From an uncultured candidate division Zixibacteria bacterium (GTDB lineage Bacteria; Zixibacteria; MSB-5A5; UBA10806): 64,000 bases of DNA. Below, one piece after another: positions 6,233-34,542 of the stretch; within the stretch, counting starts at the first letter, position 1; each line of letters starts with the position of its first letter. Below the pieces are notes generated by a model. It worked only from the letters and a program-made list of their open reading frames with translations. It ran no database searches and was not told the DNA's origin. The stretch spans positions 64,001 through 128,000 of the forward strand of contig CAWDFP010000006.1 in the NCBI GenBank assembly GCA_963801605.1, read 5' to 3'. The translations under genes were made by a program, and so were the position numbers.

Positions 6233-7012
6233 ATGGATATCTACAAGGAAATTGCGGAGCGTCTTGAACAGGGCAAGCCATTTGTGCTGGCAACTCTTAT
6301 CCACACTTCAGGGTCAGTGCCAAGGGATCCGGGCGCCAAAATGCTGGTTTTTCCGGATGGCACCATTTCGGGCACAATTGGCGGTGGCAAATTCGAAAAA
6401 ATGATTATAGATGATTGCTTAGCCATGTTTGCCGATAATTCAACAAACCAGCTAAAAAGTTATCTTCTGCAGGACTCCGGACCAGATGCCATAGGCATGT
6501 ATTGCGGCGGCAAAGCCGAGGTTTTCCTTGAAAGGTTTTCCCGTCCCGAGACACTGTATATTTTCGGAGGGGGACATATCGGGCGAGACCTGGCAAAAAT
6601 TGCTCTCGGTTTGAATTTTAGAATCATTGTAATCGATGACAGGCAGGACATACTATCGCAATATCAGAGCCCGGTTGAGACTATCCTTACAGATACCAGT
6701 TTCGATCTGGATTTCCCTCAGATAAGTGACGACAGTTATGTGGTTATCGTGACACATGGGCATAAAGGCGATCGCGACGTGCTTTCGAAAGTGATAAATA
6801 CCAGCTGCGCTTATATCGGAATGATCGGTTCAAAAACCAAGATTGCCAAGACTTTTGCATCGCTGGAGGAAGCTGGAATTGATCGAGAAAAATTATCTCG
6901 GGTGCATAGTCCCATCGGCCTCGATATTGGCGCCGAGGGGCCGTACGAGATTGCAGTGGCAATAGCGGCTGAAATAATTGCGGCCAAACGGAAACAAGCA
7001 GCCAAAAAATAA
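6233..7012 (+). CDS. XdhC/CoxI-family molybdoenzyme maturation factor
   Basis: 'GSVPRDPGAKM','GTIGGG','GMYCGG','FGGGHIG','YIGMIGS','SPIGLDIGA..PYEIAVAIAAEI'. Confidence 0.93.
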   Translation: MDIYKEIAERLEQGKPFVLATLIHTSGSVPRDPGAKMLVFPDGTISGTIGGGKFEKMIIDDCLAMFADNSTNQLKSYLLQDSGPDAIGMYCGGKAEVFLERFSRPETLYIFGGGHIGRDLAKIALGLNFRIIVIDDRQDILSQYQSPVETILTDTSFDLDFPQISDDSYVVIVTHGHKGDRDVLSKVINTSCAYIGMIGSKTKIAKTFASLEEAGIDREKLSRVHSPIGLDIGAEGPYEIAVAIAAEIIAAKRKQAAKK

Positions 7013-7027
7013 CAGATATTTATTGGG

Positions 7028-7045
7028 GTCATAACAAATTATGAC
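7028..7045. repeat. Palindrome GTCATAA-N4-TTATGAC (copy 1)
   Basis: Perfect 7-bp arms. The same arms recur at 35306-35323. Confidence 0.7.
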
Positions 7046-7202
7046 ATCCAATTAGATTTTTGTTGGGTTTCTCGTCCGGGAAATCGCAATACGCCTACAC
7101 CAAAGAAATATGATAATATATATGATTGAGCAACTGCCTTTATCAACATCCCCTGAATTGTGTCGCTACGGAATTTAATAAACGAATCCTACACCAAAGA
7201 AA

Positions 7203-7235
7203 GGATGTGGTCACATTTAATTGTGACACACATCC
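7203..7235. repeat. Imperfect palindrome, possible terminator between convergent genes
   Basis: GGATGTG-GTCACA-tttaat-TGTGAC-a-CACATCC. Confidence 0.55.
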
Positions 7236-7255
7236 TTGGCTACTTAGTATTAAAA

Positions 7256-8308
7256 TTATTCTATGATTTCCCAGTTTGGCTGGTATTTATCGAGTTCGAT
7301 TCGGGTACGCTCGTCCAGGGGATGAGGACGCTCGGGTATTTCGACATGCTTATCGACTCCACACAGCGGAGTAGAAAAATAACGCTGGCCGGTATCGTTA
7401 ATCATGGTAACGATCCGTTTCAGTTGCGGATGTTTCTTGGCGAGCTTGATGGCCGCGGCGATATTAGAGCCCGATGATATTCCGCAGAATATGCCCTCCA
7501 TACGAGCCATCTTTCTGGCCATCTCTAAGGCTTCGGATGTGGTGGTAGTGATAATGCCATGCAGAAGTGAAACATCGAGATTGATCGGTACAAAGCCATC
7601 GCCGATACCCTCGATACCGTGCGGACCCCAGGCTCGCTTTGAAAGGAGCGGGCACTCCGCGGGTTCGATCGCATAAAGTTTGGTTTTCCCTTTTTGTTTG
7701 CGGATATATTTTCCAACGCCGGTTAAGGTGCCACCGGTGCCCTGCGTGGCGATGAAAGCGTCGAGCCTGCCACCAGTCTGCTCCCAAATTTCGGGGCCGG
7801 TGGTCTTGAAATGAGCGGCCACGTTATCGGCGTTATCAAACTGCGCCGGCACCCAATATTTCTTTGGATTTTGAGAGCGGATTAGCGCAAGCTTCTCAAG
7901 CGCCAAATCAACGTCGCTCTCCCCGCCCGGCGTATAGACCATTTGAGTGCCATAGGCGATATCGAGCATCTTACGTTCCTCGGACATGCCCTCAGGCATA
8001 ACAATAATGCAGGGATATCCCTTAACTGCGGCGACAAATGAACAACCAATACCGGCGTTGCCGGTGGAACATTCCAAAACAGTCATGCCGGGTTTAAGCT
8101 CGCCTCGCTTTTCGGCCAGATTGAACATATTGAGGTAGATGCGATCTTTAAGGCTGCCCGACGGCGAAAAATATTCGACCTTGCCCAATATCTCGCATTC
8201 TACGCCCATCGATTTCGGAATTTTATTCAATTTAACAAGCGGCGTTCTGCCGATAGTATCGAAAATGTTTTTGGAAATACGTTTGTTGCTGTCCCATTTG
8301 ACTGGCAT
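7256..8308 (-). CDS. PLP-dependent cysteine synthase-family (fold type II) enzyme
   Basis: 'IGRTPLVKL','SPSGSLKDR' (PLP Lys),'STGNAG','GTGGT','HGIEGIG','GISSG','DTGQRYFST'. Confidence 0.9.
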   Translation of the reverse strand: MPVKWDSNKRISKNIFDTIGRTPLVKLNKIPKSMGVECEILGKVEYFSPSGSLKDRIYLNMFNLAEKRGELKPGMTVLECSTGNAGIGCSFVAAVKGYPCIIVMPEGMSEERKMLDIAYGTQMVYTPGGESDVDLALEKLALIRSQNPKKYWVPAQFDNADNVAAHFKTTGPEIWEQTGGRLDAFIATQGTGGTLTGVGKYIRKQKGKTKLYAIEPAECPLLSKRAWGPHGIEGIGDGFVPINLDVSLLHGIITTTTSEALEMARKMARMEGIFCGISSGSNIAAAIKLAKKHPQLKRIVTMINDTGQRYFSTPLCGVDKHVEIPERPHPLDERTRIELDKYQPNWEIIE

Positions 8309-8319
8309 GTTAGTCTCTC

Positions 8320-9573
8320 CTATTTGAAAAGCTTTCTTATTCTCCGTTCGATTGCACCGATATCGGGATCAACCAGTTCGATATCAGATGAGATATTCGT
8401 CGCGGCGGCCTCGATATCCTTTAAGCCGTGCCCGGTAAAAAGAACTACGGTTGTTTCATCCCTATCTATCTGGCCAGATTCCACGAGATTTAGAAGTCCG
8501 GCGTATGAGGCGGCGGCCGCAGGCTCAACGAAAATTCCTCCCTGCCGGGCGATTATCTTTTGCGCCGAGAGAATCTCATCCTCGCCAACTGCGATCATGG
8601 CACCCTGAGTGGTCCTCACGGCTCGAAGCGCCTTAAAGCTATCCCTGGGGTAACCGACCGAGATTGAATCGGCAATGGTTTCGGTGGCACTTAAGAGGAT
8701 CGGCTCGCCATCCATCATAAAAGCTGAAACCAGCGGGCTGGCCCCTTTGGCCTGGATTCCATAAAGGCGCGGCATTTTATCTATCAAGCCCAAACCCAAC
8801 AAATCGGAAAAACCTTTGTAAAGTCCGCCAATAATGCAGCCATCGCCGACCGGACAGATGACAGAATCAGGCGCTTTACCGAGGTCTCGCGCCATTTCAA
8901 GCGCGGCGCTTTTTTTGCCCTCTCCCGTGTAGGGATTAACTGCGGTATTACGATTGTACCATCCGAATTTTTGGCAAGCCTCCTGGCAAAAATCGAAAGC
9001 GTGATCGTAGTCGCAGTCAAGTTTGATGATATGCGCACCGTGTATTGCGATTTGCACCATTTTGGGACGAGGAGCGTTTTTCGGGACAAAGACTATAGTC
9101 TCAAGCGATGTCGCAGCGGCCAGCGTGGCCAATGATGAAGCGGCATTTCCGGTGGACGCAGTTGCGATCACCTTAGCCCCCGCTTCCTGCGCCATGGCAA
9201 TTGCCACGGCCGAGGCACGATCTTTGAATGACGCCGATGGGTTTCTACCATCGTCTTTAACCCAGAGTTCTTTCATTTTAGCTGCTTTAGCCAATTTAAT
9301 GGATTTGAACTGTGGGGTCTGGCCAACCGGTATCGGAGGCAGGTTTTCTCTGGATTTAAATGGGAAAATATCCTCAAGGGATTCAAATACCGGCTTGCAA
9401 CGATGCAGAAGCTGAAGCGCTTTGTATTTGCTTTTTAGTTTCTCTAAGGGATAGATAACATCGAGGGTGCCGCGAAAGGGGCTACAGTTGGGACAGGTAT
9501 ATACATCGGAATCTTCCGCAAATTCGCGTTCGCAATTAACACATCTAAGCTTAAATTTCAAATTCTCTCCCAT
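8320..9573 (-). CDS. Threonine synthase-like PLP enzyme
   Basis: N-terminal CxxC..CxxC, 'NPSASFKDR','ASTGNAA','PVGDG','EPAAAA','TGHGLKD'. Confidence 0.88.
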   Translation of the reverse strand: MGENLKFKLRCVNCEREFAEDSDVYTCPNCSPFRGTLDVIYPLEKLKSKYKALQLLHRCKPVFESLEDIFPFKSRENLPPIPVGQTPQFKSIKLAKAAKMKELWVKDDGRNPSASFKDRASAVAIAMAQEAGAKVIATASTGNAASSLATLAAATSLETIVFVPKNAPRPKMVQIAIHGAHIIKLDCDYDHAFDFCQEACQKFGWYNRNTAVNPYTGEGKKSAALEMARDLGKAPDSVICPVGDGCIIGGLYKGFSDLLGLGLIDKMPRLYGIQAKGASPLVSAFMMDGEPILLSATETIADSISVGYPRDSFKALRAVRTTQGAMIAVGEDEILSAQKIIARQGGIFVEPAAAASYAGLLNLVESGQIDRDETTVVLFTGHGLKDIEAAATNISSDIELVDPDIGAIERRIRKLFK

Positions 9574-10886
9574 AACGATTTAGCTAATTTTCCGGCTTCA
9601 GACAGCATGCCGTCATAATCGAATCTTTCAAATTTGCCGCCGGATAATATTTTAGAACCCCCGATCCAAACTGAATCGGCAGACAGATCGCAAAGGCCAT
9701 AGAGATAATGCCCGATAATATTGGCGGCGTTAAGCGGTGTGGGCGGATTGTATCGCCAGAGGACCAGATCGGCGGGATAGCCCGGCGCAATCCGACCGAC
9801 TCTCATTCCGGTGATCTTTTCAAAGATGGATGGATTTCGCTCGAGCAGCATTTCTCCAATTTGACCGAAACCGAAATCGGGGTCTTCCTTTTCATGCCTC
9901 GATAAATAGAGAGCCGCTTTAGCCTCATGTAGCATATCGGAGGCGATACCATCCGTGCCCAAGCCGATGGAAAGACGATCATAATCCCACCAAGGTGCGA
10001 ATCCGACAGCATTATTCTGATTGGATCGAGCGCACAACGCCAGGTTGGTTTTAGTTGAACTTAATTTTGAAATTTCATTTGTATCGAGATGGACTCCGTG
10101 CACAGCCAGGCTGCGTTCATTAAGCAAACCATAGTTGGCGAAACGTTCAGCGGCTTTGTGTCCATATTTTTCAAGCGATATTTTTTGATCGATCCGATCC
10201 TCAGCCAAATGAAAATGGTAACCCGAAGAATATTGTTTGGTGGTATCGGCAATAGCTTTTAGATTTTCATTCGATAGAGTCATCGAGGCGTGCAGGCCAA
10301 CCATTGCAGTTAGATTGCTTTTCACGCCACCATAGGGCCATTTGCTGAGCGCATCAACTGACTCATTAATTCCGAGGTTGAAAGCTTTTTCCCCGGCGCG
10401 ATTAGACAGTTCAAAGCATAGCGAGCCGCGCAAGCCGATAGTTTCGAATGCAAGGGCGATTTTATCCAGAGAGCCTTTAATCGTACGCTGGCTGGAATGG
10501 TGATCGACGACCGATGTCACACCCGAAAGAATAGACCGGCTGAGGCCAACGAGGGCGGAATAGTAGATATCATCAAGATTAAGACCTTCATCAAGGGGCC
10601 ACCAGATGCGCTCCAGGATTTCCTTGAAATTAGATGGGGGTAATGATTTCGGAATCCAGCCGCGCGCAAATGATGAGTAAAGGTGATGGTGAAGATTAAC
10701 CAGCCCCGGTGCAAGTAATCCCTGACCAATATTCTCAAGGGGAACTTTGGGATTGTCATGTTTGATCTTTTCTACAGGACCAATCTCGCGAATAATCCCG
10801 TCTTCAATAAGAACCGCGCCTTTTTCGAAGAAAGCGTCAGGCTTATCATTGCTGAAAATTGAAGAACCGGTTAAGATTGTTTTCAT
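9558..10886 (-). CDS. ssnA: SsnA-like metal-dependent amidohydrolase
   Basis: 'PGLVNLHHHLYSSFARG','GVTSVVDHHSS','GLHASMTLS','HFHLAE','GTDG'. Confidence 0.85.
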   Translation of the reverse strand: MKTILTGSSIFSNDKPDAFFEKGAVLIEDGIIREIGPVEKIKHDNPKVPLENIGQGLLAPGLVNLHHHLYSSFARGWIPKSLPPSNFKEILERIWWPLDEGLNLDDIYYSALVGLSRSILSGVTSVVDHHSSQRTIKGSLDKIALAFETIGLRGSLCFELSNRAGEKAFNLGINESVDALSKWPYGGVKSNLTAMVGLHASMTLSNENLKAIADTTKQYSSGYHFHLAEDRIDQKISLEKYGHKAAERFANYGLLNERSLAVHGVHLDTNEISKLSSTKTNLALCARSNQNNAVGFAPWWDYDRLSIGLGTDGIASDMLHEAKAALYLSRHEKEDPDFGFGQIGEMLLERNPSIFEKITGMRVGRIAPGYPADLVLWRYNPPTPLNAANIIGHYLYGLCDLSADSVWIGGSKILSGGKFERFDYDGMLSEAGKLAKSLWERI

Positions 10887-10889
10887 AGT

Positions 10890-12095
10890 CTAAACTTGAC
10901 GAAGCTCCAGGCATCCGGATACAGGTTGAGTCAGAAGGCACAATCCGCACCCGACACATTTATCATGAGAAATAGACGGTTTTCTTTTTGCAGAATCCCA
11001 TTCAATCGCTTCGTGGCCGCCATCGCGACAGGCGACATAGCATCGTCCACACCCGATACATTTCTCATCGACCACATTGCTTCGAACCTGTTGACGAGGA
11101 AGAGCGTCATGATCGACCAGATGCGGCAGGGCACGGCCGACCAAATCGGTTACGGAATTGAAATTTTTATCTGCCAAGTATCTATCGAGACCGCTGGTCA
11201 GGTCCTGGATAATATCAAACCCATAAAGCATAACAGCGGTACATATCTGCACGTTGGATGCTCCTACTGCGAGAAGCTCCACGGAATCTCGCCAGTTGGA
11301 AATGCCGCCGTTGCCGGAAATAGTTATATCGGGGATGTGACGAGCAATTTCAGCTACGGTTCGCAGCGTAATCGGTTTGATGGCCGGGCCGGTTAAGCCG
11401 GAATAGGTAGAATAGTTTGCTACGCCCGGAACGGGAGTAAGCGTATCGATATCGATTCCCATAAGGGCGGGAACCGAGTTTGAGGCGGTAACGCCATCGC
11501 AACCGGCACGCTGGATTGCCTTGACAATTGTGACAATATCCGTGACCTGCGGAGTAATCTTGATGAGCACCGGAAGCGATCCGGCGGCTTCCTTGACCCA
11601 ACTGGCCGCTCTTTCGGTAGCCGTTTCGCTTTGAGCCAGCATTTTACCGGGGTCCTCTCCGATATTCCCTTGTGGGCAGGAGAAACTGCATTCGATTAGA
11701 TCAACTCCGGCATCTTTAAGCGCTTTCACCAGCGTTTGCCACCCCTCTTTTGAGCCTGACATGATCGAGGCGGCAATCATCTTTGAAGGGAATTCTTTTT
11801 TAAGGGTAGAAACACGCTTTGATATTTCGTCAATATGGTATGCGCTGATAAGATCGATATTCCCCATTCCGATGGTTTTATCATCGCTTACGATTGAGCT
11901 CATCATGGGATAAGCAAGATCGACTTTGGTGTCGAGCGCCGAGGTAGTCTTCAGTATCAAGCCAGCCCAGCCGGCTTCGAGTCCTCTCCTCGCAATCGAA
12001 AGCTCATCTGTAGAGGGGGCCGCCGAAAGGATGAACGGATTTTCAAGGCGGATTCCGAGGAAATCGTAACTTAATCTGGATGATGTCAAAGTCAT
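10890..12095 (-). CDS. preA: Dihydropyrimidine dehydrogenase-like FMN subunit (PreA) with C-terminal ferredoxin domain
   Basis: 'ENPFILSAAP','FSCPQG','KITP','GLTGPAIKP','GNGGISNWRD','VQICTAVM', two ferredoxin-type motifs. Confidence 0.88.
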   Translation of the reverse strand: MTLTSSRLSYDFLGIRLENPFILSAAPSTDELSIARRGLEAGWAGLILKTTSALDTKVDLAYPMMSSIVSDDKTIGMGNIDLISAYHIDEISKRVSTLKKEFPSKMIAASIMSGSKEGWQTLVKALKDAGVDLIECSFSCPQGNIGEDPGKMLAQSETATERAASWVKEAAGSLPVLIKITPQVTDIVTIVKAIQRAGCDGVTASNSVPALMGIDIDTLTPVPGVANYSTYSGLTGPAIKPITLRTVAEIARHIPDITISGNGGISNWRDSVELLAVGASNVQICTAVMLYGFDIIQDLTSGLDRYLADKNFNSVTDLVGRALPHLVDHDALPRQQVRSNVVDEKCIGCGRCYVACRDGGHEAIEWDSAKRKPSISHDKCVGCGLCLLTQPVSGCLELRQV

Positions 12096-13339
12096 TTTGC
12101 CTCCAGATAGCTGATAATCGCGGCAGCCACAGACTTACCGTCCCGAACAGCTTCAACGATTGTTCCCTCGCCTCTGGCCCAATCGCCGGCGGCGAATATT
12201 CCGGGAATCGAGGTTGTAAGATCGGGATTGATTTCTATATCCCTCATATATTCCGACGCTAAACCGACGGCGGTGATTACCATCTCGGTCATCATCATAA
12301 ATTCGCTTCCCCTGATCTGGCGCGGAATTCGTCTGCCGGAGGCATCACACTTATCATCAAGCTGAATTCTGGTACAATTGACAGCTTCGATATTCCCACC
12401 TTCACCCATTATCTCGACCGGCGCAATAAGATATTCGATAATTATTCCCCTCTTTTGCGCTTCCCGCAGCTCCGAGCGCCAGACTTTCATCTCAGCGGGG
12501 CCTCGGCGATAAAGCAAACGAACTTCCGAAGCGCCGAGACTGGCGGCAGTGGAAGCCACGTCAAGGGAGACATTTCCTCCGCCAACCACAACAACCTTTT
12601 TGCCTGCGATATCGTTAATTTTGCCCAAACGCGCTTTCCGGAGAAAGCTGATGGCGTCTATAACGTCGGGGAGGTGTTCACCGGGAATTTCGAGACGTTT
12701 TCCGGTTTCGAGACCTGAGGCAATCAGGACCGCGCTAAATTCTTTCAGCAAGCTTTGCGGATCATCTATTTCCTGATTTAACTTAAATTCTATTCCAAAG
12801 CTTTTGGCATAATTAAGATCAAGATTAATTTCATCATCGGACAATCTAAAGCCGGGAATACTGACGGCGGGGACTCCGCCGGTTTGGGAGTCTTTATCGA
12901 AAATCGTGATACGATATCCGGCCTTGGATAGTTTTATCGCCGCGCTTAAGCCCGCGGGACCAGCGCCGATAATCGCGACTTTGCCTGTTTGAGCCGGCGC
13001 CGTAATTTCGGTTTTACTCTCTTTATGCGATGCGAAGCTATGAAGATTCCTGATTTTAATCGGCTGGTCGATTTTACCCCTGGTGCAGGCGCTCTGACAG
13101 AAAACCTCCTGAGGACAAACGGAGCCGCAAATTGCCGCCATCGGGTTGGCCTCACGGACCAATAATGAGGCTCTATAAAGATTACCGCTATTAATCGATC
13201 TTATAAATTCGGGAATGGGAATTCCGGCAGGGCACGCTTTTTGACAGGGAGGATCGAAACACGACAAACAACGCTGTGCCTCGGTCTTTACCCATTCATC
13301 TTTATTAGATTTTACATCCGATGGAATTAAAACGGGCAT
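12092..13339 (-). CDS. preT: PreT/GltD-like FAD/NAD(P)H Fe-S oxidoreductase subunit
   Basis: 'EAQRCLSCFDPPCQKACP','CGSVCP','GAGPAG','GGGNV','AAGD...TIVEAV'. ATG 13339 follows GAGG. Confidence 0.85.
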   Translation of the reverse strand: MPVLIPSDVKSNKDEWVKTEAQRCLSCFDPPCQKACPAGIPIPEFIRSINSGNLYRASLLVREANPMAAICGSVCPQEVFCQSACTRGKIDQPIKIRNLHSFASHKESKTEITAPAQTGKVAIIGAGPAGLSAAIKLSKAGYRITIFDKDSQTGGVPAVSIPGFRLSDDEINLDLNYAKSFGIEFKLNQEIDDPQSLLKEFSAVLIASGLETGKRLEIPGEHLPDVIDAISFLRKARLGKINDIAGKKVVVVGGGNVSLDVASTAASLGASEVRLLYRRGPAEMKVWRSELREAQKRGIIIEYLIAPVEIMGEGGNIEAVNCTRIQLDDKCDASGRRIPRQIRGSEFMMMTEMVITAVGLASEYMRDIEINPDLTTSIPGIFAAGDWARGEGTIVEAVRDGKSVAAAIISYLEAK

Positions 13340-13350: not shown

Positions 13351-13881
13351 CTAAACAATAAATTTCTTCAAATCGTTTTCCGTTATTATTAGTGCCGCCT
13401 TCCTGACAGCATCGAGTATTTGAATATAGCCGGTACATCGGCAAAGATTGCCCGCAAGGGCCTGTTTGATTTTGACATCATCGGGATTATGGTCTTTCAA
13501 AAATAGCGCAATCGTAGACATGATCATTCCGGGCGAGCAGAAACCGCAATGGACTGCATCGCAATCCACATACGCCTTTTGTATCGGATGAAGATCAGCG
13601 GCCCCCGACGATGCTACTCCTTCTATTGTCCAGATACTGGCTCCATCTATCTGCGGCGCTAACAGCAGACAGGCGTTGACGGCATTACCGTTGAAGAGCA
13701 CCGTGCACGCCCCGCATTCACCAACCTCGCAGCCGCACTTGACACCGAGATACCCCAAACCGTCGCGGAGAAACCGAAGCAGGGTCCATCCAACAGGAGC
13801 ATCCTTGTTAAAAGGAATACCGTTCAGCCGAAAACTGATTTCAACAGTCGGTTCGCCGATGCCAAAGCCTAACGAATTCAT
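13351..13881 (-). CDS. Xanthine dehydrogenase-family 2Fe-2S subunit (set A)
   Basis: 'GCEVGECGACTV','CGFCSPG','GNLCRCTGY'. Confidence 0.93.
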   Translation of the reverse strand: MNSLGFGIGEPTVEISFRLNGIPFNKDAPVGWTLLRFLRDGLGYLGVKCGCEVGECGACTVLFNGNAVNACLLLAPQIDGASIWTIEGVASSGAADLHPIQKAYVDCDAVHCGFCSPGMIMSTIALFLKDHNPDDVKIKQALAGNLCRCTGYIQILDAVRKAALIITENDLKKFIV

Positions 13882-13882
13882 T

Positions 13883-14737
13883 TTAAATAACGCTCATCCC
13901 GGACGCTTCGTGAAGCGCTCTTTTCATCAGTCCGATTAATACAGGTTTTTTGTAAGGGGTTGACCACCTGTAGCCGCTTTCCTTTAACATTAATTCCGCA
14001 GCAAAATTGGCCGCATCTTCAAACAGTTTCTCGGATATTTTCTGGCCATTCAATAACTTTTCCAAATCATTCATTCGTGAAGGCGCCGGGAAGATTGATC
14101 CTCCCGCGATGATGGCGTTTTTAATGATTCCCTTATCATCCCGCATTATCGTGGCGGCCAGAGTCATTCTGGAGATGTTTACTGCCTGACGTCGTCCAAG
14201 CTTGATATAGGATGACCCGGAGGGGCCGACGGCTTTATGGCATCTGATCGAATAAAGCAGTTCATCGGGATTAATCAGCGTTTTATATGGGCCGATTACA
14301 AATTGGCCGAGGCTTATAGTTCTTTTTCCCTTACGAGAAAGCAATGTCAGTTCGGCGTCATAATTAAGCAAGGCCGGCACGGAATCGGCACATGGCGAGG
14401 CGTTTATAATATTTCCACCAACGGTACCGCGATTTCTTATTTGCCAGGAGCCAACCAAACTGGTAGCACGGCTTACCAGCGGCAAATTTTCCTTAATCAT
14501 ATTATTCGTTGATAAGATTGTATGAGTGCAAGCAGCACCAATTTCTATAAAGTTGTTATCATCATTAATAAATGACATTCCTAAACGAGATATATCAAGT
14601 AACTGGCTTGGTTTTCCGCCGCGCAGTTGAGGAATCAAGTCTGTTCCGCCGGCAATAGGGATAAATTCGCCTGAGGATAGCAGGTCAAGCGCTTCGTTAG
14701 GCGTTTCCGGTTTGCGATATGAAGTAACGCTAATCAA
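13883..14737 (-). CDS. Xanthine dehydrogenase-family FAD subunit (set A)
   Basis: 'AGGTDL','IRNRGTVGGNI.NASPCAD'. Confidence 0.92.
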   Translation of the reverse strand: MISVTSYRKPETPNEALDLLSSGEFIPIAGGTDLIPQLRGGKPSQLLDISRLGMSFINDDNNFIEIGAACTHTILSTNNMIKENLPLVSRATSLVGSWQIRNRGTVGGNIINASPCADSVPALLNYDAELTLLSRKGKRTISLGQFVIGPYKTLINPDELLYSIRCHKAVGPSGSSYIKLGRRQAVNISRMTLAATIMRDDKGIIKNAIIAGGSIFPAPSRMNDLEKLLNGQKISEKLFEDAANFAAELMLKESGYRWSTPYKKPVLIGLMKRALHEASGMSVI

Positions 14738-23747: not shown

Positions 23748-23760
23748 AAATTTTTAATCA

Positions 23761-23877
23761 TCATTGCGAATCGGTTGTATCGCTCGACGAAGCAATCTAA
23801 ATGCCTTTATAGGAAAGTATTCTTGCGCATAGATTCAGATTGCTTCGCCCCGATGAATCATCGGGACTCGCAATGAC
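23761..23877. repeat. REP-like nested palindromic element
   Basis: TCATTGCGA...TCGCAATGA outer arms and CGAAGCAATCT...AGATTGCTTCG inner arms, plus a CCCGATGA-a-TCATCGGG hairpin. Confidence 0.8.
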
Positions 23878-23882
23878 TACGC

Positions 23883-26724: not shown

Positions 26725-27641
26725 CTACACCTCCGATAGTCTCAACAACATTTTCGCCATACTCCGGACCATTCCGTCTAAGACGAGCGCCGCGCGCTTA
26801 CGAGAGCCGCGTTCGAACATTACCTGACACATGTGCAAACGGTATTCCTTCGATGGCTCTGATATCGGTAATCGGGAATGACAATTCCGGGTATCAGCGC
26901 ATTGGGCATGCTCGATAAGCAGATCATCCGGTTCTTGCCGTAAAGCAACTTCTCGATATTTCATAAGCGCGAATGGGAATAGGCCCTACTGAACCGAAGG
27001 CAATTCGATAAGCTGCGATCAGCGCAATGCCAGATCACTAGAACACTGGCCTGCGCCAGGTCTTCGCCGGAGTATCTGCCAAGCTTGGCGTAACAACCGC
27101 CATGCTTTTTCTTCGGAATTGGAATTTCGATTGCCGTTACAATCTCGCCCTTTTTCAGAGACGGTATTCCGGGGACCACGAAACCAATCAGCTATCGGGA
27201 TTTTTCTTTTGACCTTTGAGACCCTGAACCATGACGATAGCCTCATAGGAGCAGAGCAGCGGCCCGCGAATCCATACAGGGTACTGCAGAACAGATATTG
27301 CCGACCATGGTTGCCCTGTTTCGAATGCCAACCGAGCCAACTGTTCTGGCAACTTCAATAAATAGAGGCAGGCGCTTTTTGATGACGGCGGATTCTATGA
27401 TATCAGAAAAAGTAACCAAAGAGCCAAGTGTTAGCTTACCGTTTTTTACTTCTATCTTTTTAAGGGATGACAAACCTTTGATATCGATAAGCGCCGATGG
27501 TTTGGCCGCACCTTCTTTTATTTCGTTGATGATATCGGTTCCGCCCGCAAGAATAGCGGCATTCCTTTGTTTCGAAAGAAGCTTGAGCGCCTCGGACAAG
27601 GTTGCAGGCTTAAAATATTCGAAATCATGCACAATCGGCAT
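26725..27641 (-). CDS. Xanthine dehydrogenase-family FAD subunit (set C), multiple frameshifts
   Basis: 'FEYFKPATL','AGGTD','IRNRATMVGNICSAVPC','KLGRYSGEDLA'. Confidence 0.82.
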
Positions 27642-27651
27642 AAAATCCCCC

Positions 27652-28477
27652 TTACTTTCCGGGCGGCATAAAGGCCACGATTCGGCACATCGACGATTCC
27701 AGTTCGATTCCGCTTGAGCGGGAAACAACCGATCCAGGCCCGCTTGTTGGACAGCTTGTCTATATCTCCGCCAAGATTTTCAGCATGGACAATTTTTTTC
27801 GGGAAAAGATTCAAATGCATCACCTGGTAGTACTCGTCCGGAGGGAAACATCTCGTCCCAGGACCTGGCCATATTTGATCTGAAGTTTTTCCTCGGCTTC
27901 GATAAAAAGATCGGGATGCCATTTGCGAATGATCGTGTTCATGGGATGGTCGGCGCTGCCGCAATCGACACCAATCCATTTGATTTTCATCTTGGCTACC
28001 CACTTGTGAAAGCCCGGCCCCGGTCCCGGATGCTTGACAAAATAGCGCATTTCGTCGGATTTTTTCTGATCCCAGGCATATTTGTGATAACCGGTGTTGA
28101 TAATCAGGATATCGCCTTTTTGGATATCGACTCTTTCGGTCAGCATTTCGGGAGTGTAAAGATCGTAATCATCGACTGCAGTCCGAAATATCGACTACTG
28201 CGCCCGGGCCGATCCATTCCTCTATCGGTACCTGGCCTATGGATCGTCCTGAGGCATGGAAATGAATTTCGCCATCCATGTGGGTACCGACGTGATTACT
28301 GGTAGTGATAATCTGGCCGTTAGCTCCCTGTCCCATGTGCGCCCCGGCGATTCGCTTGAAATACTGTATCCCGAGCGGCGCGTAGCTTGGCCAGGGAGGC
28401 GTATGGATACTGAGCCGCTGTGTCAGGTCATAGACCTTGATTTCATCCATGAATTTGAGGAACTGATTAATTTTCAT
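27652..28477 (-). CDS. Cyclase / kynurenine-formamidase-family metal hydrolase, frameshifted
   Basis: 'HVGTHMDGEIHF' (HxGTHxD),'GDILIINTG','IGVDCGSADHP','HAENLGG'. Confidence 0.85.
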
Positions 28478-29886
28478 CTTCCAGGCTCCTTCATATTTTC
28501 CAAAATTTTTGCCAACCCATCATAAGCCCGACCGAACGGTTCGCCCGGCGCGTTTAGCACTCCGGCTCCGATCTGACCGACACCGGCATCTTTGTGCGCT
28601 ACGCCGGTATCGATAAAGGGCAACACGTTATTTTCGACAACCTTGATGACATCGATCCCTGTCGGGGTTCCGCGGAAATCAAGATATGGTATCTGATACG
28701 CTTTATTCTCCGAGGACGTTATCTCGTACATTTCCAGAGTATAGTTTTGGGCATCCTTAGCGCTGCCACCCACAAAACCCACAATAGCGGGCGCGGAGGC
28801 AATCGCAAATCCGCCCAGCCCATAAGTTTCAGTGATAGCGCTATCGCCGATATCGGGGTTGGCATCGTTTTTAGAGAAACCCGCAAAATATAGGGCGTCA
28901 GGAATTGGCGCGGGGCCGGTGAACCACTGATTTCCGGTACCGGCCAGCTGTACTCCGAAATCAACACCATTTCGGGCCATCGTCACAACCACGCTGCTAA
29001 GCTCAATGTTTCTGGCAGCGTCAAGCGAAACTTTAGCGGCCGCCATCGATAGGTTCAGGAAGAAATGATCGTTGGAATTGATGAACTCCATCACCCTGGC
29101 TGCTGTCTCACTATCGGAACAAGTCCTCATAATGGCGGGGGCAATAATCCTAAAGAGAAGCGATGTTGCCGCACGATTCCTGTTATGAAGCTCGTCGCCC
29201 ATGTGAAGTGCCTGAGCGATGATACTCTTGAGATCGATCTGGCCGATTTTCTCAATCGCGCTTTGAAGAACAGGATATAGCGTATCATTCATCCACTTGA
29301 GGCGCACTATAACATCATCGCTATAAGCGCCATAACGAAGGACCTTACCTAAACCTTCATTCATCGTAGTAAACGCGAGATTGCCAAAGGTCTCGTTCTT
29401 AATGATAAAGACCGGCATTGACGGTGATATGATACCGGCCATCGGACCTACCGAGGCGTGTTCGTGGCAAGGGGAATATTCAATTTTCGGAGCCAGTTGC
29501 TCGGCCTCGGTGCGATTTGACGCCATCCCCTCATATATCAGCGCGCCGATTACGGCTCCCTTCATGGGGCCGCACATTCTATTCCAGGTGATAGGCGGAC
29601 CGGCATGAAGGATCATGTTATTCTTCATATCCGGGATTACATCAATCGCTTTGGCCAGGCCGATTAGAACAGGCTTACCGTCAATAATCTTTTTTACGGC
29701 ATTTTGATTGGCTGATTCGATTATCCGGCGATTGGATTTAATTATCTGACGTGAATTTTCAGCAACAATGATTGGCGGGCGCCAATCGAGTTGAATCGAT
29801 TCGATATTATTGATATCCAGGGGCTGCTTGAAACTCTCCAAACCCATATTTATGATTTTTAGCTCTTTTCCGAATAGCTCTTTCAT
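28474..29886 (-). CDS. DUF1116 (YlbE/YahG-like) protein
   Basis: 'ILHAGPP','PCHEH.SVGPMAG','NEGLGKVLRYGA','MGDELHNRN','DIGDSAITE','TGVAHK'. Confidence 0.9.
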   Translation of the reverse strand: MKELFGKELKIINMGLESFKQPLDINNIESIQLDWRPPIIVAENSRQIIKSNRRIIESANQNAVKKIIDGKPVLIGLAKAIDVIPDMKNNMILHAGPPITWNRMCGPMKGAVIGALIYEGMASNRTEAEQLAPKIEYSPCHEHASVGPMAGIISPSMPVFIIKNETFGNLAFTTMNEGLGKVLRYGAYSDDVIVRLKWMNDTLYPVLQSAIEKIGQIDLKSIIAQALHMGDELHNRNRAATSLLFRIIAPAIMRTCSDSETAARVMEFINSNDHFFLNLSMAAAKVSLDAARNIELSSVVVTMARNGVDFGVQLAGTGNQWFTGPAPIPDALYFAGFSKNDANPDIGDSAITETYGLGGFAIASAPAIVGFVGGSAKDAQNYTLEMYEITSSENKAYQIPYLDFRGTPTGIDVIKVVENNVLPFIDTGVAHKDAGVGQIGAGVLNAPGEPFGRAYDGLAKILENMKEPGR

Positions 29887-31442
29887 GAGAGTTCCTTCGC
29901 AATGAAACCAGCCAGACGGCTGGCAGCGGCGTTTGATTCCTTGACGATAACGCCAATTTTACTCAATCCCTCGACAACCATAGATCGATTTTGAGGGTCT
30001 TTATCGGTGCCGGTCACAGAACAGATAAAAGAAAGCTGCCGTCCAGATTTTTGGGCGATTGACATAGCTTCCTCAATAGCAGGAGCGATCTCCTCAAGCG
30101 GATTCATATTGGCGCCGAATCCCAGGACGATATCAAATAGGATTACGGCCGTTTCGGGATCATCAGATTCTTGAATGATTCGTTTTTTTCTGAGCGTGAA
30201 ATCTATCATCGGGTGAAGCCGTCCGAGAGTAAACTCGTCAGCGCCCATATCGATAAAGGTATGCTTTTCGCTTTTGAGAACATCGTTTAAATCATTGTTA
30301 TCCTTGATCGGAGAATTGGAATAAATATTATTCAACATGCCTTTTAACAATACCTGTGTCTCATAGCAGTACGTACCGCCACTGAAAAGTCCCCTTATAT
30401 ATTTTTGGCCAGGCGCCATACCGGTGGTTTGGGTTTTGGCAAGTTCGATAAGCTTGGCATCAGAACCTATAAATTGATTTGGCTTTTCGCCTTTCGATAA
30501 GGCAACCGCAGCCAGGGCACCTTCCTCAAGTGATTTTGCATAATAGATACGGCTGTTTGATTTTAAGTTTTCAGCGCCGAGAAATATCGCCACCAGCGGT
30601 TTGGTTACATCTTTCAAAACCGATTCAATCTTCTCAAGTGTCTCCGGCGCCGGTGGCTTGGAAACAAGAAGAATAACCTTGGTATTATCATCCGCCGCAA
30701 GCGCCTTGAGGCTTTGGATAAACATCATCCCGCGCAGATCGCGCCCGATATCACGGCTTCCGGTGCCGATTGCCTGTGAGATACCATATCCGGCATTAGA
30801 AATAATACAGCTAACCTCCTGCAGGCCGGTCCCGGATGCAGCCACAATTCCGATATCCCCGTGGTTGACGGCATTGGCAAATCCAAGGGGAATACCATTT
30901 ATAATCGCCGTACCACAATCGGGACCCATTACCAGCAAACCCTGTGATGCCGCATAATGCTTAAGTTCAATCTCCTTTTCGAGCGGGACATTATCGGAAA
31001 AAAGCATCACGTGGAGTCCTGATTTGAGAGCGCGCATAGCCTCATCACCGGCAAAACGGCCCGCCACCGAAATAATGACGAGATTAGCGTCAGGCATTAC
31101 ATTTAAAGCGGAGTCTATCGTCCGGGGAACGCCTACCGATCCCTTTTTATCCGTGGCTTTTAAGGATGATAATAATTTATCGATTTCATTGGGTAATCGT
31201 TTAGCGAGGTCTTCGTTTTCGGTTTTAAGAACAATCAGAAGATCGTTATCGCAGGAATCTCGAAGCTTGTCGTTCATCATACCCGCCGACTCCAGTATCG
31301 CTTTGTTGCTGTCGCTTCCCATAATGGCGGCGGAATCAAGCACGCCGGGAAGCTCTCCGAGCTTCTGAGCCAGACGCATCAACGTTACAGAATCGTAATA
31401 TTCGCCCTTGCGAACAACTCCATTTATAAAATGACTGTTCAT
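29883..31442 (-). CDS. fdrA: FdrA/YahF-like acyl-CoA synthetase alpha-like protein
   Basis: 'YYDSVTLM','HVMLFSDNV','MGPDCGTA','ASGTGLQEV','GLFSGGT','GRLHPMID'. Confidence 0.9.
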   Translation of the reverse strand: MNSHFINGVVRKGEYYDSVTLMRLAQKLGELPGVLDSAAIMGSDSNKAILESAGMMNDKLRDSCDNDLLIVLKTENEDLAKRLPNEIDKLLSSLKATDKKGSVGVPRTIDSALNVMPDANLVIISVAGRFAGDEAMRALKSGLHVMLFSDNVPLEKEIELKHYAASQGLLVMGPDCGTAIINGIPLGFANAVNHGDIGIVAASGTGLQEVSCIISNAGYGISQAIGTGSRDIGRDLRGMMFIQSLKALAADDNTKVILLVSKPPAPETLEKIESVLKDVTKPLVAIFLGAENLKSNSRIYYAKSLEEGALAAVALSKGEKPNQFIGSDAKLIELAKTQTTGMAPGQKYIRGLFSGGTYCYETQVLLKGMLNNIYSNSPIKDNNDLNDVLKSEKHTFIDMGADEFTLGRLHPMIDFTLRKKRIIQESDDPETAVILFDIVLGFGANMNPLEEIAPAIEEAMSIAQKSGRQLSFICSVTGTDKDPQNRSMVVEGLSKIGVIVKESNAAASRLAGFIAKELS

Positions 31443-31449
31443 CTCAGAC

Positions 31450-32271
31450 TTAAATTCGATTAAATGTTAAAAACACACCAACTCCCCAATCGGCGCCGGA
31501 TGTTTCGCCTATTTGGCATAATTGCTTGGTACAAGAATCGATTTTATCATTCGACTCAAAAATGAGAGCCATGAGTAGCGCCTTTTGATGTTCGGTATAG
31601 CAGCCATCCCTGGCACATTTAAGAAAGGCGTTACTCAGAAGATTCTTTCCGATGGCATTGGCATAAATATCATTAACCAGACCCGAATAATCCCGTCCGA
31701 AAACTTTCTCGGCGGCTTTGTAGGCGGCTATCATACCTGTGTTGAAATCGTCTCCGCTGGGAGTCAAGCCGATCCCCAGCCCGCGCATCATACGCACACC
31801 GATTATGGTTTGTCCCTGTTGCATATACCTTGAGGCGCTTTTGGACTGCGCAAACATCATTATTTCCCGGGCTCCCCGGAGATCAGTAAGGTATCCTGGT
31901 TCGATCAATACGGCCAGGCTCTTGGGAGGGGAATAAGCAATTAGAGCATCTTTAAAAGTTTGAAGATTAGAAAATAATACTAAAGGTTCAGGTTCTTCAA
32001 AAAAGACCAGTTCCGAATGAAAGCGCGTTCGACCATCACAGGGAAATTCGTTATCATCTATAAACAAGCGGCATTCATCAATTTCAAGAGCTTGCACCGC
32101 ATCGAAATTAATCCCTCGCGCTACCAGATTGATTGGGCCCGAGCCGACATCCTCCGTCACGACGGCGATCAACTCGCCATTACACTCAAAGTTTGCGGCT
32201 TTCGAGAACCTCGAATGAACCCGGTATCGCCCGGGAACTAATTTATCTCCGATGCTCAGGACTTCAATCAT
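31450..32271 (-). CDS. DUF2877 (YlbF/YahE-like) protein
   Basis: 'VHSRF','GLGIGLTPSGDDF','GETSGADW'. Confidence 0.88.
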   Translation of the reverse strand: MIEVLSIGDKLVPGRYRVHSRFSKAANFECNGELIAVVTEDVGSGPINLVARGINFDAVQALEIDECRLFIDDNEFPCDGRTRFHSELVFFEEPEPLVLFSNLQTFKDALIAYSPPKSLAVLIEPGYLTDLRGAREIMMFAQSKSASRYMQQGQTIIGVRMMRGLGIGLTPSGDDFNTGMIAAYKAAEKVFGRDYSGLVNDIYANAIGKNLLSNAFLKCARDGCYTEHQKALLMALIFESNDKIDSCTKQLCQIGETSGADWGVGVFLTFNRI

Positions 32272-32615
32272 GCCTTAAAGAATACCATCCCCATATATTC
32301 GTTGTACTCATCCCGACGGACAACCTGCACTTTGCCGCGGACTTTCATCCCCATTTGAGGATTTTCGATATCGAGCTGCCCGGTAATACGGTTGCCATCG
32401 GAAAGTTCGACGATCCCTAAACCGAGTGTTACAGTTTCAAAATCCGGAGGCAAAGTATAGAGAGTGGTATAAGTAAGAAGCTTCCCCTCTTTAGGAAGCG
32501 GCACGATGTCGAATTCGTTGTGGTCGTTCTTATGACAGTTGCAGCAGATAGTTCGATACGGATATTGCACATGGCCGCACTTTTTGCATTTGTAAGCGTA
32601 TATGTTCATTTCCAT
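32268..32615 (-). CDS. DUF35 Zn-ribbon/OB-fold thiolase partner
   Basis: 'CKKCG...YP...CCNC','GKLLTYT','GIVEL..G.RITGQL'. Confidence 0.9.
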   Translation of the reverse strand: MEMNIYAYKCKKCGHVQYPYRTICCNCHKNDHNEFDIVPLPKEGKLLTYTTLYTLPPDFETVTLGLGIVELSDGNRITGQLDIENPQMGMKVRGKVQVVRRDEYNEYMGMVFFKA

Positions 32616-32618
32616 AAA

Positions 32619-33794
32619 CTAATTCTCCCTGACAAATGTGAGACAAACCACATTGTTGCCGAAACCGCCGAAATTGCAGGTAAATCCTACTCTGGCATTT
32701 TTAACCTGACGCTTGTCGGCCTCACCGCGAAGCTGCTGTACAATTTCATGCGCCTGCCCCACTCCGGTCGCTCCGACCGGATGACCCTTGGCTTTGAGGC
32801 CGCCGGAAGTGTTAATCGGAAGCTTACCGCCAAGTTTAGTTACTCCTTTTTCCAGCGCGATATGGCCTTGACCTTTGGGGAAAAATCCTACCTCTTCGCT
32901 TTCGGCGATTTCGAGGATCGTAAAGGCATCATGCAACTCGGCAACATTGACATCCTGAGGCGTTAGTTTCGCCATGGCGAATGATTGCCGGGCGGCTTCC
33001 CGGACCGCTAATAGCTCAGTTGGATCTTTACGATCATGCACAGAATGCGTATCGGTGGCCTGGCCTACTCCTGCCAAACGAACCAAAGGTTTGCCAGTCT
33101 TTTTGGCAACATCGGCGCTTGTTAAGATCAGGCAGGCGGCGCCATCAGACACCGGGCAACAATCGAAAAATCTGAGCGGATCGGCAACATAAGGATTGTT
33201 GGTGGAAGCCTCTGGCGAGTCGAGTATGCCCTCGATAGTAATCGGTTCGTGCAAATGCGCAAACGGATTTAGCATGGCGTTGGTATGATTTTTAACGGCC
33301 ACCATCGCCAGATGCCTGGATGTAACTCCATATTTATTCATATACAGCCGAGCGAACATTCCTGCGAGCGATGGCAGCGTTACGCCATAAATATATTCCG
33401 CTAATGGATGAGTGAGCGTAGCCACAAATTCAGTAGCCTCAAGATTGTTTACCTCGCGCATCTTTTCGGCACCAACCACCATGACGACATCATGCATACC
33501 GGAGGCGACCGCCAGGAATCCCTGCTTGATCGCCGAGGCTCCGGATGCCGGTCCGTTTTCGATTCCATCGGCGCCGGCAGGTGTCAGGCTAAGATTATCG
33601 ATTACGGCGCTGGCCAGCCCGGTTTGATGGTTGAGTCTGGCTGCGCCCATGTTGGCCACATAGAGATGATCGATTTTATCCAAGCCCGAATCTCGAAGAG
33701 CCATTAGAGCCGGATAAGCGGCGATTTCAATTAAAGGATATTCCAGGCGAGTGAAGCTTGTTATGCCAATCCCAGCTACATAAACCTCTCGCAT
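32619..33794 (-). CDS. Thiolase-superfamily (SCP-x/archaeal-type) protein lacking the nucleophile Cys
   Basis: 'GAEKM','KNH.NA..NP.AH','DCCPVSDGA','ELHDAFT','INTSGGLKAKGHPVGATG'. The CASG site reads ENGPASG. Confidence 0.88.
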   Translation of the reverse strand: MREVYVAGIGITSFTRLEYPLIEIAAYPALMALRDSGLDKIDHLYVANMGAARLNHQTGLASAVIDNLSLTPAGADGIENGPASGASAIKQGFLAVASGMHDVVMVVGAEKMREVNNLEATEFVATLTHPLAEYIYGVTLPSLAGMFARLYMNKYGVTSRHLAMVAVKNHTNAMLNPFAHLHEPITIEGILDSPEASTNNPYVADPLRFFDCCPVSDGAACLILTSADVAKKTGKPLVRLAGVGQATDTHSVHDRKDPTELLAVREAARQSFAMAKLTPQDVNVAELHDAFTILEIAESEEVGFFPKGQGHIALEKGVTKLGGKLPINTSGGLKAKGHPVGATGVGQAHEIVQQLRGEADKRQVKNARVGFTCNFGGFGNNVVCLTFVREN

Positions 33795-33795
33795 T

Positions 33796-34542
33796 TTAAT
33801 TCCCTCCCAACCTGCGGCGCTGTTCAATCAGAGCGGTGGCAGTAGAATCGTATAGCGAACGGGTAGCAGCCAAAAGATCGATGGGGGGCGTGGGCGGATC
33901 GCTTGGAGGCATTATCGCCTCTTTAGCTTTGATCAGAAGATGTCCCGGTACGGGACGGCGTCCCACCACCAGGCTAGTGCGGGCTTTTTCGAAAATCTCC
34001 TTTGTAAGAGACCAGGACGGCACGCCGCCAAGTTCGTGGGGGATATCAAATCGTTTTTCCAGCTTATATTCAATCATCCAGCGACGGAACCCGATTGGTG
34101 ATTCGGCCACAATCAGCACTTCCTTTTGCCCCAGGATATCCAGATGATACTCCATCTTGGCGGCGAAGGCATGCGCCCCAATCCGGAGCCCTCGTCTGAG
34201 AGCCAGCGTATGATACGACATGCCAATATCGGCGCTCACTCTTCTGCCGTTAACGATGGCGGCCAGTTCACCGTCGATCTGGGCGGCAAGGACGTACTCA
34301 TCCTGAACCCGGTAGGTATAGTAACCCAGCAGTTCGGCGTAAACCCGAGCGGCAACAATATGGTAATAATCGCGCTCGACATGCATCAGCTTTTCGACAT
34401 GCGGCAGGATATCGGGAATCTCATCGCGGCTTACCTGCCTGATAATCATCTCCTCGCCGCCCGCAAGAGTCATAAGTTTGGGCGGAAACTCGGGCATCGG
34501 CGTATCCACAGGGCGAAGAATCTTCTCCAGGTCAACGGCCAT
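33796..34542 (-). CDS. Hypothetical protein, possible GNAT-like acyltransferase fold
   Basis: 248 aa with strong SD (AGGAGG). 'HTLALRRGLRIGAH' resembles GNAT motif A. The fold call is inference. Confidence 0.6.
   Translation of the reverse strand: MAVDLEKILRPVDTPMPEFPPKLMTLAGGEEMIIRQVSRDEIPDILPHVEKLMHVERDYYHIVAARVYAELLGYYTYRVQDEYVLAAQIDGELAAIVNGRRVSADIGMSYHTLALRRGLRIGAHAFAAKMEYHLDILGQKEVLIVAESPIGFRRWMIEYKLEKRFDIPHELGGVPSWSLTKEIFEKARTSLVVGRRPVPGHLLIKAKEAIMPPSDPPTPPIDLLAATRSLYDSTATALIEQRRRLGGN

Follow-up and report, generated by a model that had tools for sequence, protein, structure and literature searches.

Does a long run of genes for anaerobic nucleobase breakdown encode one pathway or two? 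This question is raised by a 64,000-nt stretch of the genome of an uncultured candidate division Zixibacteria bacterium, here called the window, which corresponds to positions 64001-128000 of contig C6 (CAWDFP010000006.1) in a 3.06-Mb, 14-contig assembly that is 87% complete; C8 denotes another contig of the same genome. An original prediction, made from the letters of the window, recognised here a relative of the anaerobic urate-degradation cluster of gut bacteria and proposed a single rewired pathway. The relationship is supported, and the single pathway is not. The region very probably consists of two adjacent modules with different distributions, namely module A (7256-23747), a conserved operon likely to serve anaerobic purine breakdown, and module B (23883-34542), which rather probably oxidises pyrimidines.

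Gene Order and Distribution of the Two Modules

Genes were assigned by Pfam and NCBIfam profile scans of the open reading frames (ORFs) of the window. From 34542 down to 7256, 24 genes lie in one orientation on the minus strand, facing a convergent plus-strand gene (6233..7012) for an XdhC-family molybdenum-cofactor chaperone (Pfam XdhC_C, XdhC_CoxI), which belongs to module A and keeps its convergent position in relatives. In transcription order, module B encodes a 248-amino-acid (aa) orphan protein, a thiolase, a DUF35 protein, AllH, AllF, AllG, a cyclase and X3, a set of the xanthine dehydrogenase (Xdh, XDH) family with flavin (FAD), iron–sulfur (Fe-S) and molybdenum (Mo) subunits. Module A follows with a hydantoinase, a YgeW-like protein, MocA, the Xdh sets X2 (Mo, Fe-S, FAD) and X1 (Mo, FAD, Fe-S), PreT, PreA, an SsnA-like amidohydrolase and two pyridoxal phosphate (PLP) enzymes, one ThrC-like and one CysK-like. 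A layout of about 24 genes plus chaperone had been predicted, and the family scans confirmed it together with all the families then named (three Xdh sets, MocA, SsnA-like, hydantoinase, YgeW-like, PreTA, FdrA/DUF1116/DUF2877 and cyclase). Newly recognised are the ThrC-like and CysK-like enzymes, the thiolase, the DUF35 OB-fold protein, the GNAT-fold orphan and 34 frameshifts.

GC content is even across the region (0.49-0.50), and 21 of the 23 junctions among the 24 genes overlap or leave a gap of at most 22 bp. The only wide gaps, of 135 and 145 bp, lie one on each side of the hydantoinase gene. The first, on the module B side, is a long palindromic element (23748..23882) resembling repetitive extragenic palindromic (REP) sequences, whose hairpin is predicted at -49.6 kcal/mol and of which the genome contains 5 further, partial copies. 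The second holds a putative promoter-like site (22275..22304, minus strand; 10/12 match to consensus) 5' of the ygeW-like gene.

The distribution of the modules was followed in 60 genomes of relatives and in a phylum sample of 250-251 genomes. Module B, traced by its GNAT gene, occurs in 2 of 250 phylum genomes, versus 12 of 250 for SsnA, and the GNAT gene is unmatched in 10 of the 12 other SsnA-positive genomes of the phylum. In one relative (G019), modules A and B lie on different contigs; there, the GNAT gene heads the same ten-gene block, with no purine genes in the 25 kb read. The modules adjoin again on at least one metagenome contig of unrelated origin (L079), the single case among 79 loci of the GNAT gene drawn from the best 80 of 108 confirmed matches. 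At this locus, module B stands beside genes for a hydantoinase, carbamate kinase, PreT/PreA, SsnA and a ThrC-like enzyme. Two cases of adjacency are insufficient to show selection for the pairing. Coupling of the modules through electrons is plausible, since electrons released by uracil oxidation could be taken up by urate reduction.

Module B as a Probable Pyrimidine-Oxidising System

The oxidative pyrimidine pathway of Rhodococcus employs uracil/thymine dehydrogenase, barbiturase and ureidomalonase, with hydrolysis to urea. Module B resembles it in having an Xdh-family hydroxylase and a slot for a ring-opening hydrolase, and an alternative arrangement of the module contains true barbiturase and uracil-permease-like genes. 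It differs in that a cyclase-family hydrolase stands in place of barbiturase, AllHFG (with predicted phosphorolysis) in place of hydrolysis to urea, and a trio of GNAT, Cys-less thiolase and DUF35 proteins is added. Judged by these gene families, module B rather probably acts on uracil or thymine via barbiturate and would release carbamoyl phosphate.

X3 (23883..27641, minus strand like the whole module; FAD 26744-27641, Fe-S ~26240-26730, Mo 23883-26243; 26 frameshifts) is the candidate uracil/thymine dehydrogenase. The XDH-type Glu and Arg, common to X2 and Rhodobacter capsulatus XDH, are missing from X3, and its relatives in a plasmid collection reach 36% at best. Neither that collection nor the PDB yielded a reference sequence of uracil/thymine dehydrogenase. 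The adjoining cyclase-family (kynurenine-formamidase-like) metal hydrolase (27664..28477; 4 frameshifts) is a candidate barbiturase analogue. Across the 79 metagenome loci, a cyclase is found at 9 and a barbiturase at 8, and the two never occur together; this barbiturase scores 531 bits to 5hwe versus 307 to the best cyanuric acid hydrolase. Thiolase is present at 75 loci, DUF35 at 58, the X3 Mo subunit at 31, AllF at 22 and a uracil-permease-like gene at 17, many contigs being short. The best named match of the permease-like genes is uracil permease, below the cut-off. In an Embleya record, a carbamate kinase gene is located directly 5' of barbiturase (L138:8956-11095), a further link between barbiturate and carbamoyl phosphate.

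Several observations weigh against a pyrimidine role. The 8 barbiturase loci are 90-100% alike and effectively represent one lineage, many of the 79 loci do not extend far enough to reveal either hydrolase, the best solved match of X3 is 4-hydroxybenzoyl-CoA reductase, and both X3 and the cyclase gene are heavily frameshifted in the window genome. The test for barbiturase in this genome failed: an intact barbiturase query gave no tblastn match, and the PF09663 profile matched in 0 of 5 genomes, its control being likewise blank. No X3-type gene was seen at the two actinobacterial barbiturase loci examined. No ureidomalonase was found among the annotated ORFs of module B, the rest of the genome not having been searched for it.

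AllH (31450-32271), AllF/FdrA (29883-31442) and AllG (28474-29886), adjacent within 28474..32271, form a candidate acyl-urea phosphorylase. The three genes belong to the same families as E. coli AllFGH and its uncharacterised paralogues YahEFG. In contrast to AllFGH, the genes are arranged H-F-G, as in YahEFG, to which identity is also higher (41% and 48% to YahFG, versus 38% and 45% to FdrA and YlbE), allantoin genes are missing and carbamate kinase is unlinked. Ureidomalonate is the next homologue of oxalurate, one methylene longer, so that phosphorolysis to malonamate and carbamoyl phosphate would be the simplest reading. According to the available passages of its description (PMC11326118), purified E. 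coli AllFGH catalyses the reversible conversion of oxalurate to oxamate plus carbamoyl phosphate.

Module B might instead act on another N-heterocycle or ureide, such as a purine-derived hydantoin, parabanate, oxalurate or a pyridine, with AllHFG serving as an ordinary oxamate carbamoyltransferase. This alternative seems doubtful. It gains from the fact that AllFGH is characterised, in those passages, on oxalurate only, that the nearest solved relatives of X3 act on varied rings, and that the family match of the cyclase is weak and generic. However, no homologue of allA, allC, allD or allE was found in the 87% complete genome, the trio is nearer to YahFG than to FdrA/YlbE, and barbiturase and uracil-permease-like genes flank module B elsewhere.

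The 248-aa orphan (33796..34542) at the head of the module belongs to a large, conserved and unnamed family of 2868 homologues without a Pfam match. Its predicted model, with a predicted local distance difference test (pLDDT) score of 80, adopts a GNAT fold, the best comparison being with 1yre (Z 14.1; root-mean-square deviation 2.9 over 164 residues). In a quick-mode tree with no clade test, the window protein stands apart from two other copies of the same phylum, which hints at separate acquisition. A second paralogue of this orphan, 40% identical, lies within module B of the metagenome locus (L079:12509-13237).

At the position of the acyl-accepting Cys, the thiolase-fold protein (32619..33794) has Pro82, invariant across the 17 sequences aligned, and would therefore be unable to form an acyl-enzyme, while both histidine motifs (HDAF, GHP) are kept. 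Its partner is a DUF35/ChsH2 zinc-ribbon OB-fold protein (32268..32615), recognised by family scan. Fold, histidines and DUF35 partner are shared with archaeal-type thiolase/DUF35 pairs (7yvy, 6esq) and with the Ltp2-ChsH2 aldolase (6ok1); the differences are the replaced Cys and the neighbour, a GNAT-fold protein and not HMG-CoA synthase. As a conjecture, such an enzyme could fit decarboxylation or hydrolytic C–C cleavage of a malonyl-type CoA ester.

Module A as a Likely Variant of the Reductive Urate Pathway

The reductive urate pathway of E. coli, C. sporogenes and C. difficile comprises xdhD-ygfM or xdhAC, ygfK or uacX, ssnA, hyuA, ygeW, yqeA, ygeY and ygeX, as given in the available parts of three accounts (10.1101/2025.05.19.654654, 10.1101/2025.04.24.650524, PMC12990295). 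Module A likewise brings together, in a single operon, genes for an SsnA-like amidohydrolase, a hydantoinase, a YgeW-like protein, Xdh sets, MocA and XdhC, and the window genome also encodes YgeY and carbamate kinase. It differs in that YgeX was not found and two other PLP enzymes occupy its place, YgeW is shorter, and the two three-subunit Xdh sets have no close match in XdhA or XdhD. Gene content and order make it likely that module A is a variant of this 2,8-dioxopurine route and serves anaerobic purine breakdown.

Conservation of the operon was assessed in the relatives, in which SsnA is present in 14 of 60 genomes, all 14 loci being mapped. As far as the contigs reach, the order is ygeW-mocA-X2-X1-(permease)-preT-preA-(adenine deaminase)-ssnA-thrC-cysK-ygeY, facing xdhC; mocA is away from its usual spot in two relatives. 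The bracketed genes are a guanine/hypoxanthine-permease-like gene, seen in 5 relatives, and an adenine deaminase gene, seen in at least 9 of 12. Among relatives from other genera, all 11 that could be evaluated have ygeY after cysK as the final gene of the operon; neither of the 2 congeners does, the gene having been relocated there and in the window genome. The hydantoinase gene lies directly 5' of ygeW in 2 of the 6 relatives with that stretch visible.

The conserved operon begins with the short YgeW-like carbamoyltransferase gene (21222..22211, minus strand as in the rest of module A), whose product is 41% identical to E. coli YgeW and retains the WAYxPSYxKPLSVPQG loop. With 7 promoter-like sites found versus 3.4 expected, the site near this gene is weak alone; similar TTG-type hexamers were noticed by eye 5' of ygeW in relatives. 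An 11-mer common to the upstream regions of the ygeW-like and GNAT genes was considered as a regulon signal and rejected, having 5 copies in the genome and not being seen in relatives. The hydantoinase/dihydropyrimidinase (22357..23747, low end approximate), a putative HyuA, is broken by two frameshifts into three pieces that span residues 1-459 with 35-51% identity to HyuA. The SsnA-like amidohydrolase (9558..10886), which matches PRK07203, is 33.5% identical to E. coli SsnA, has motifs in common with it and would open the six-membered ring. A MocA-like molybdenum cofactor cytidylyltransferase (20615..21232) was assigned by family scans.

The roles of X2 (17080..20618; Mo 18375-20618, Fe-S 17917-18378, FAD 17080-17920, with a frameshift near 17377) and X1 (13351..17080; Mo 14734-17080, with a frameshift near 15922, FAD 13883-14737, Fe-S 13351-13881) are guesses. 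X2 retains the Glu and Arg aligned with those of R. capsulatus XDH, and X1 has Asp for the XDH-type Glu in 5 of 5 copies; oxidation is assigned to X2 and urate reduction, as a candidate, to X1.

Weighing against the purine assignment are sub-threshold scores and distant matches. The SsnA-like protein falls just below two cut-offs (421 of 444 bits for PRK07203 and 390 of 455 for TIGR03314), the YgeW-like protein (282 bits versus 453) and the hydantoinase, its ORF shortened by frameshifts, are below their NCBIfam cut-offs, the identity of X1 and X2 to E. coli XdhD and XdhA is no higher than 29-31%, and each of the three Xdh sets scores far below the selenium-XDH cut-off (TIGR03311). No NCS2 permease was found in the 87% complete genome. 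Moreover, PreA passes the dihydropyrimidine dehydrogenase cut-off (PRK08318, 412 versus 335).

The last point raises the alternative that PreTA, the hydantoinase, the YgeW-like protein or YgeY mainly serves a reductive pyrimidine route, from uracil through dihydrouracil to beta-alanine, beside or instead of purine reduction. The best family of the hydantoinase is indeed dihydropyrimidinase, and its closest relative in one genome (G011, 66%) adjoins a second preA. This route is nonetheless unlikely. The operon PreA (10890..12095), an FMN reductase of PreA/UacX type, carries SFSCPQG for NFSCPQ; all 12 copies have Ser at this point of the substrate loop, replacing an Asn with a role in uracil binding. 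In addition, PreA lies within two genes of ssnA at all 12 loci spanning both. A precedent also exists: the available passages of Li et al. report that the C. difficile PydA homologue UacX replaces YgfK (10.1101/2025.05.19.654654). Since that swap is published, PreTA in place of YgfK would not be without parallel, the likeness of a PydA/PreA-type reductase beside ssnA being one of protein family. A difference is that the reductase of module A has a PreT partner, an FAD/Fe-S subunit (12092..13336; likely ATG at 13336, ORF finder start at 13444), and UacX has none.

Genes Missing from the Cluster

The original prediction listed ygeX, ygeY, ygfK, carbamate kinase, a nucleobase permease and yqeC/selD as absent. 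For the cluster itself the list was right; across the 87% complete genome it stands for ygeX, ygfK, yqeC and the NCS2 permease, and falls for ygeY, carbamate kinase and selD. Located off-cluster are ygeY (C6:614785; 490 bits versus a cut-off of 321), carbamate kinase (C6:1309096) and selD (C6:1295444), both above their cut-offs, and adenine deaminase (C8:12051), 77% identical to the operon copy of relatives, which passes the family cut-off. All 16 carriers of module A have a carbamate kinase match, and wherever its position was seen the gene is on a different contig or distant from the operon. The sole carbamate kinase gene of the window genome is coupled to a 454-aa gene without an NCBIfam match at E 1e-20 (G000:C6:1307678-1310031).

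The family model detected ygeX in 0 of 15 genomes, the window genome (87% complete) included, and no full ygfK exceeded the TIGR03315 cut-off in 16 genomes, where only GltD-like domains matched. With positive controls detected, yqeC was found in 0 of 15 genomes and yqeB in 0 of 5; selD passed its cut-off in 14 of 15 genomes. A real variant is thus at hand, as predicted, in so far as ygeX, ygfK and yqeBC were not found. Liu et al. state, in the passages available, that the first enzyme of C. sporogenes requires SelD and that YqeBC is present in all cluster-bearing gut strains (10.1101/2025.04.24.650524). The module A lineage, in which neither YqeB nor YqeC was found, departs from those passages, and because these two proteins were not found, a selenium-independent first step is suggested.

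A Pair of PLP Enzymes as Possible Substitutes for YgeX

The operon ends, in the window, with the ThrC-like (8320..9573) and CysK-like (7256..8308) genes. In 12 of 13 mapped relatives, ssnA, thrC and cysK are adjacent, the contig of the thirteenth stopping at ssnA. Among 251 phylum genomes, SsnA occurs in 13 and each PLP enzyme in 14, these being the same genomes plus a fragmented one. The YgeX family is found in 85 of the 251 (81 above the cut-off) and in 0 of 26 genomes of the three families that carry the pair. The ThrC-like protein has NP[FY]TGEGKK in 12 of 12 operon copies, versus NPxRxEGQK in three solved threonine synthases, so that Arg and Gln of the motif are lost; this Arg has a phosphate-binding role in threonine synthase. 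In the CysK-like protein, the substrate loop reads STGNAG (within ECSTGNAG) for TSGNTG, again in 12 of 12. In a tree, the two proteins fall into separate supported clades, both distinct from YgeX, a long-branch warning applying to the deep join only.

The ThrC-like protein has relatives in other phyla, and at 8 of 16 such loci xdh or amidohydrolase genes are close by, with matches at the level of true SsnA at two (L039, L049). A close copy of the CysK-like gene is present at none of the 16, which favours the ThrC-like enzyme as the core substitute. At Desulfobulbales-type loci (L042, L044-L048, L052) and one Planctomycetota locus (L049), members of the ThrC-like subfamily have as partner a longer PLP enzyme of another kind, frequently with amidohydrolase and xdhABC genes close by. 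Weak 'ssnA' matches (25-29%) beside the Desulfobulbales ThrC-like genes were not counted, the motifs of two that were inspected not being those of SsnA. From motifs and gene neighbourhood, the ThrC-like protein is a candidate YgeX substitute and the CysK-like protein a candidate second lyase or beta-replacement enzyme.

Certain findings tell against such a substitution. The mutual exclusion of the pair and YgeX follows family lines, kin not being independent; 7 of 7 inspected YgeX loci (L164-L170), all from other families, have no purine-cluster gene within ~10 kb; the ThrC-like protein passes the TIGR00260 thrC model (209 versus 167); and 2 of 5 carriers do have cysE. The pair could be imagined as biosynthetic in amino-acid metabolism, or the CysK-like protein as a supplier of sulfide for the molybdenum cofactor. 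The names of both fold families are biosynthetic, the CysK-like protein comes close to the cysK cut-off (342 bits versus 351), and yqeBC was not found. Still, such roles look unlikely, as the pair is fixed between ssnA and ygeY and limited to SsnA carriers, no homoserine dehydrogenase was found in any of 5 carriers tested, the window genome yielded no cysE and holds two further CysK-family genes, and both substrate loops are altered.

Proposed Routes

The explanation that we consider reasonably probable overall combines purine breakdown by a 2,8-dioxopurine-type route in module A with uracil/thymine oxidation via barbiturate in module B. What the analysis establishes is which genes are present, how they are arranged and distributed, which residues differ and that the orphan has a predicted GNAT fold; the substrates named here are inferred throughout, the steps of module A from homology and genomic context.

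In module A, X2 would oxidise hypoxanthine or xanthine to urate, and X1 would form 2,8-dioxopurine by reducing urate; XdhC and MocA would mature a cofactor of sulfur type, not of selenium type. PreTA would then reduce the ring, and SsnA and the hydantoinase would open the two rings. The YgeW-like protein may yield carbamoyl phosphate and the unlinked YgeY 2,3-diaminopropionate, from which the ThrC-like enzyme would eliminate ammonia to give pyruvate. The CysK-like enzyme may take the other enantiomer or carry out beta-replacement of the C3 unit.

In module B, X3 would produce barbiturate, which the cyclase would open to ureidomalonate. This acyl-urea would be cleaved by AllHFG and phosphate to carbamoyl phosphate and malonamate. 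At the weakest step, the GNAT/thiolase/DUF35 trio might turn the C3 remainder into acetyl-CoA, or acetate, and CO2. Carbamoyl phosphate from both modules could be converted to ATP by the unlinked carbamate kinase. A bolder proposal is a Stickland-like nucleobase fermentation, in which an oxygen-independent uracil route donates electrons to a selenium-independent urate route ending in two new PLP lyases, with carbamate kinase shared; this must be regarded as speculative and rather improbable.

One integrated pathway, with AllHFG, cyclase and X3 replacing the ygeX, ygeY and carbamate kinase steps, is very unlikely: although common orientation, uniform GC and the one metagenome locus of 79 where both modules adjoin (with carbamate kinase) favour it, the genome does encode ygeY and carbamate kinase outside the cluster, most SsnA-positive genomes lack a GNAT match, one relative keeps the modules on separate contigs, and a REP-like hairpin and a promoter-like site lie between the blocks. 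Some genes missing from the cluster are present in the genome, and the extra genes are strongly conserved as a cluster of their own with its own distribution.

Frameshifts

Seven genes contain 34 frame changes (28 of +1, 4 of +2 and 2 of -1) and no in-frame stop. The 4.6 kb of cyclase and X3 hold 30 of the 34, and the broken genes are still 67-84% identical to intact homologues. The split of the X1 Mo subunit is attributed to a frameshift because it is a single gene in relatives. As a background, 280 proteins of relatives were used as queries, of which 98 outside the region passed identity and coverage filters; frame switches affect 17 of these 98 genes in a patchy manner, a few possibly being paralogue overlaps. 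The sampled rate is ~0.2 frameshifts per kb, and that of the X3-cyclase stretch is far higher. Histidyl-tRNA synthetase (60218-61502) and a 7TM-HD protein (55168-57405) are likewise split into two ORFs each, which fits assembly indels, and selB (C6:1298401) has a frame switch.

These frameshifts look like assembly errors, presumably wrong consensus calls from long reads where coverage was poor. The excess over background would favour the alternative that distal module B (cyclase and X3) is a decaying pseudogene block. This is very unlikely in view of the predominance of +1 shifts, the lack of in-frame stops, the identity of 67-84% to intact homologues and the frame switches in genes elsewhere, histidyl-tRNA synthetase included.

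Surroundings of the Region

Dispersed short repeats occupy 7013-7255, the xdhC-cysK gap in which ygeY lies in relatives, and 35191-35342, 5' of a DinB gene, with 7 and 27 partial copies elsewhere in the genome, respectively. Beyond them, four large secreted proteins are encoded in tandem (35343-46331), three of them S8 peptidases; their C-terminal domains of type IX secretion system (T9SS)/FlgD type and FG-GAP repeats could fit a protein-scavenging lifestyle. The sole Rfam match of the window is a transfer-messenger RNA gene (1357-1719).

Implications

Module A is likely a known pathway in a new variant, and its PreA-for-YgfK swap is itself already published. No published account of module B, of the PLP substitution or of the lineage was found in a literature search covering few subscription journals. 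In a pathway described only in 2025, module A offers candidates for a urate-reducing molybdenum enzyme that is possibly selenium-free and for a non-orthologous last step. This matters for gene surveys: Li et al. scored YgeX by PF00291, as the available passages indicate (10.1101/2025.05.19.654654), and a count of that kind would merge the ThrC/CysK-like step with YgeX. The order of ureido steps and the stereochemistry of the pathway are still open in the accessible part of Percudani's account (PMC12990295), and the PLP pair may bear on both questions. If true, the selenium-free version would be relevant to engineered urate-degrading probiotics.

For module B, the proposed route, if true, would provide a substrate for YahEFG-type trios and a function for an unnamed family of 2868 members. 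It would also mean ATP-yielding anaerobic use of uracil in sediment bacteria that recycle nucleic acids.

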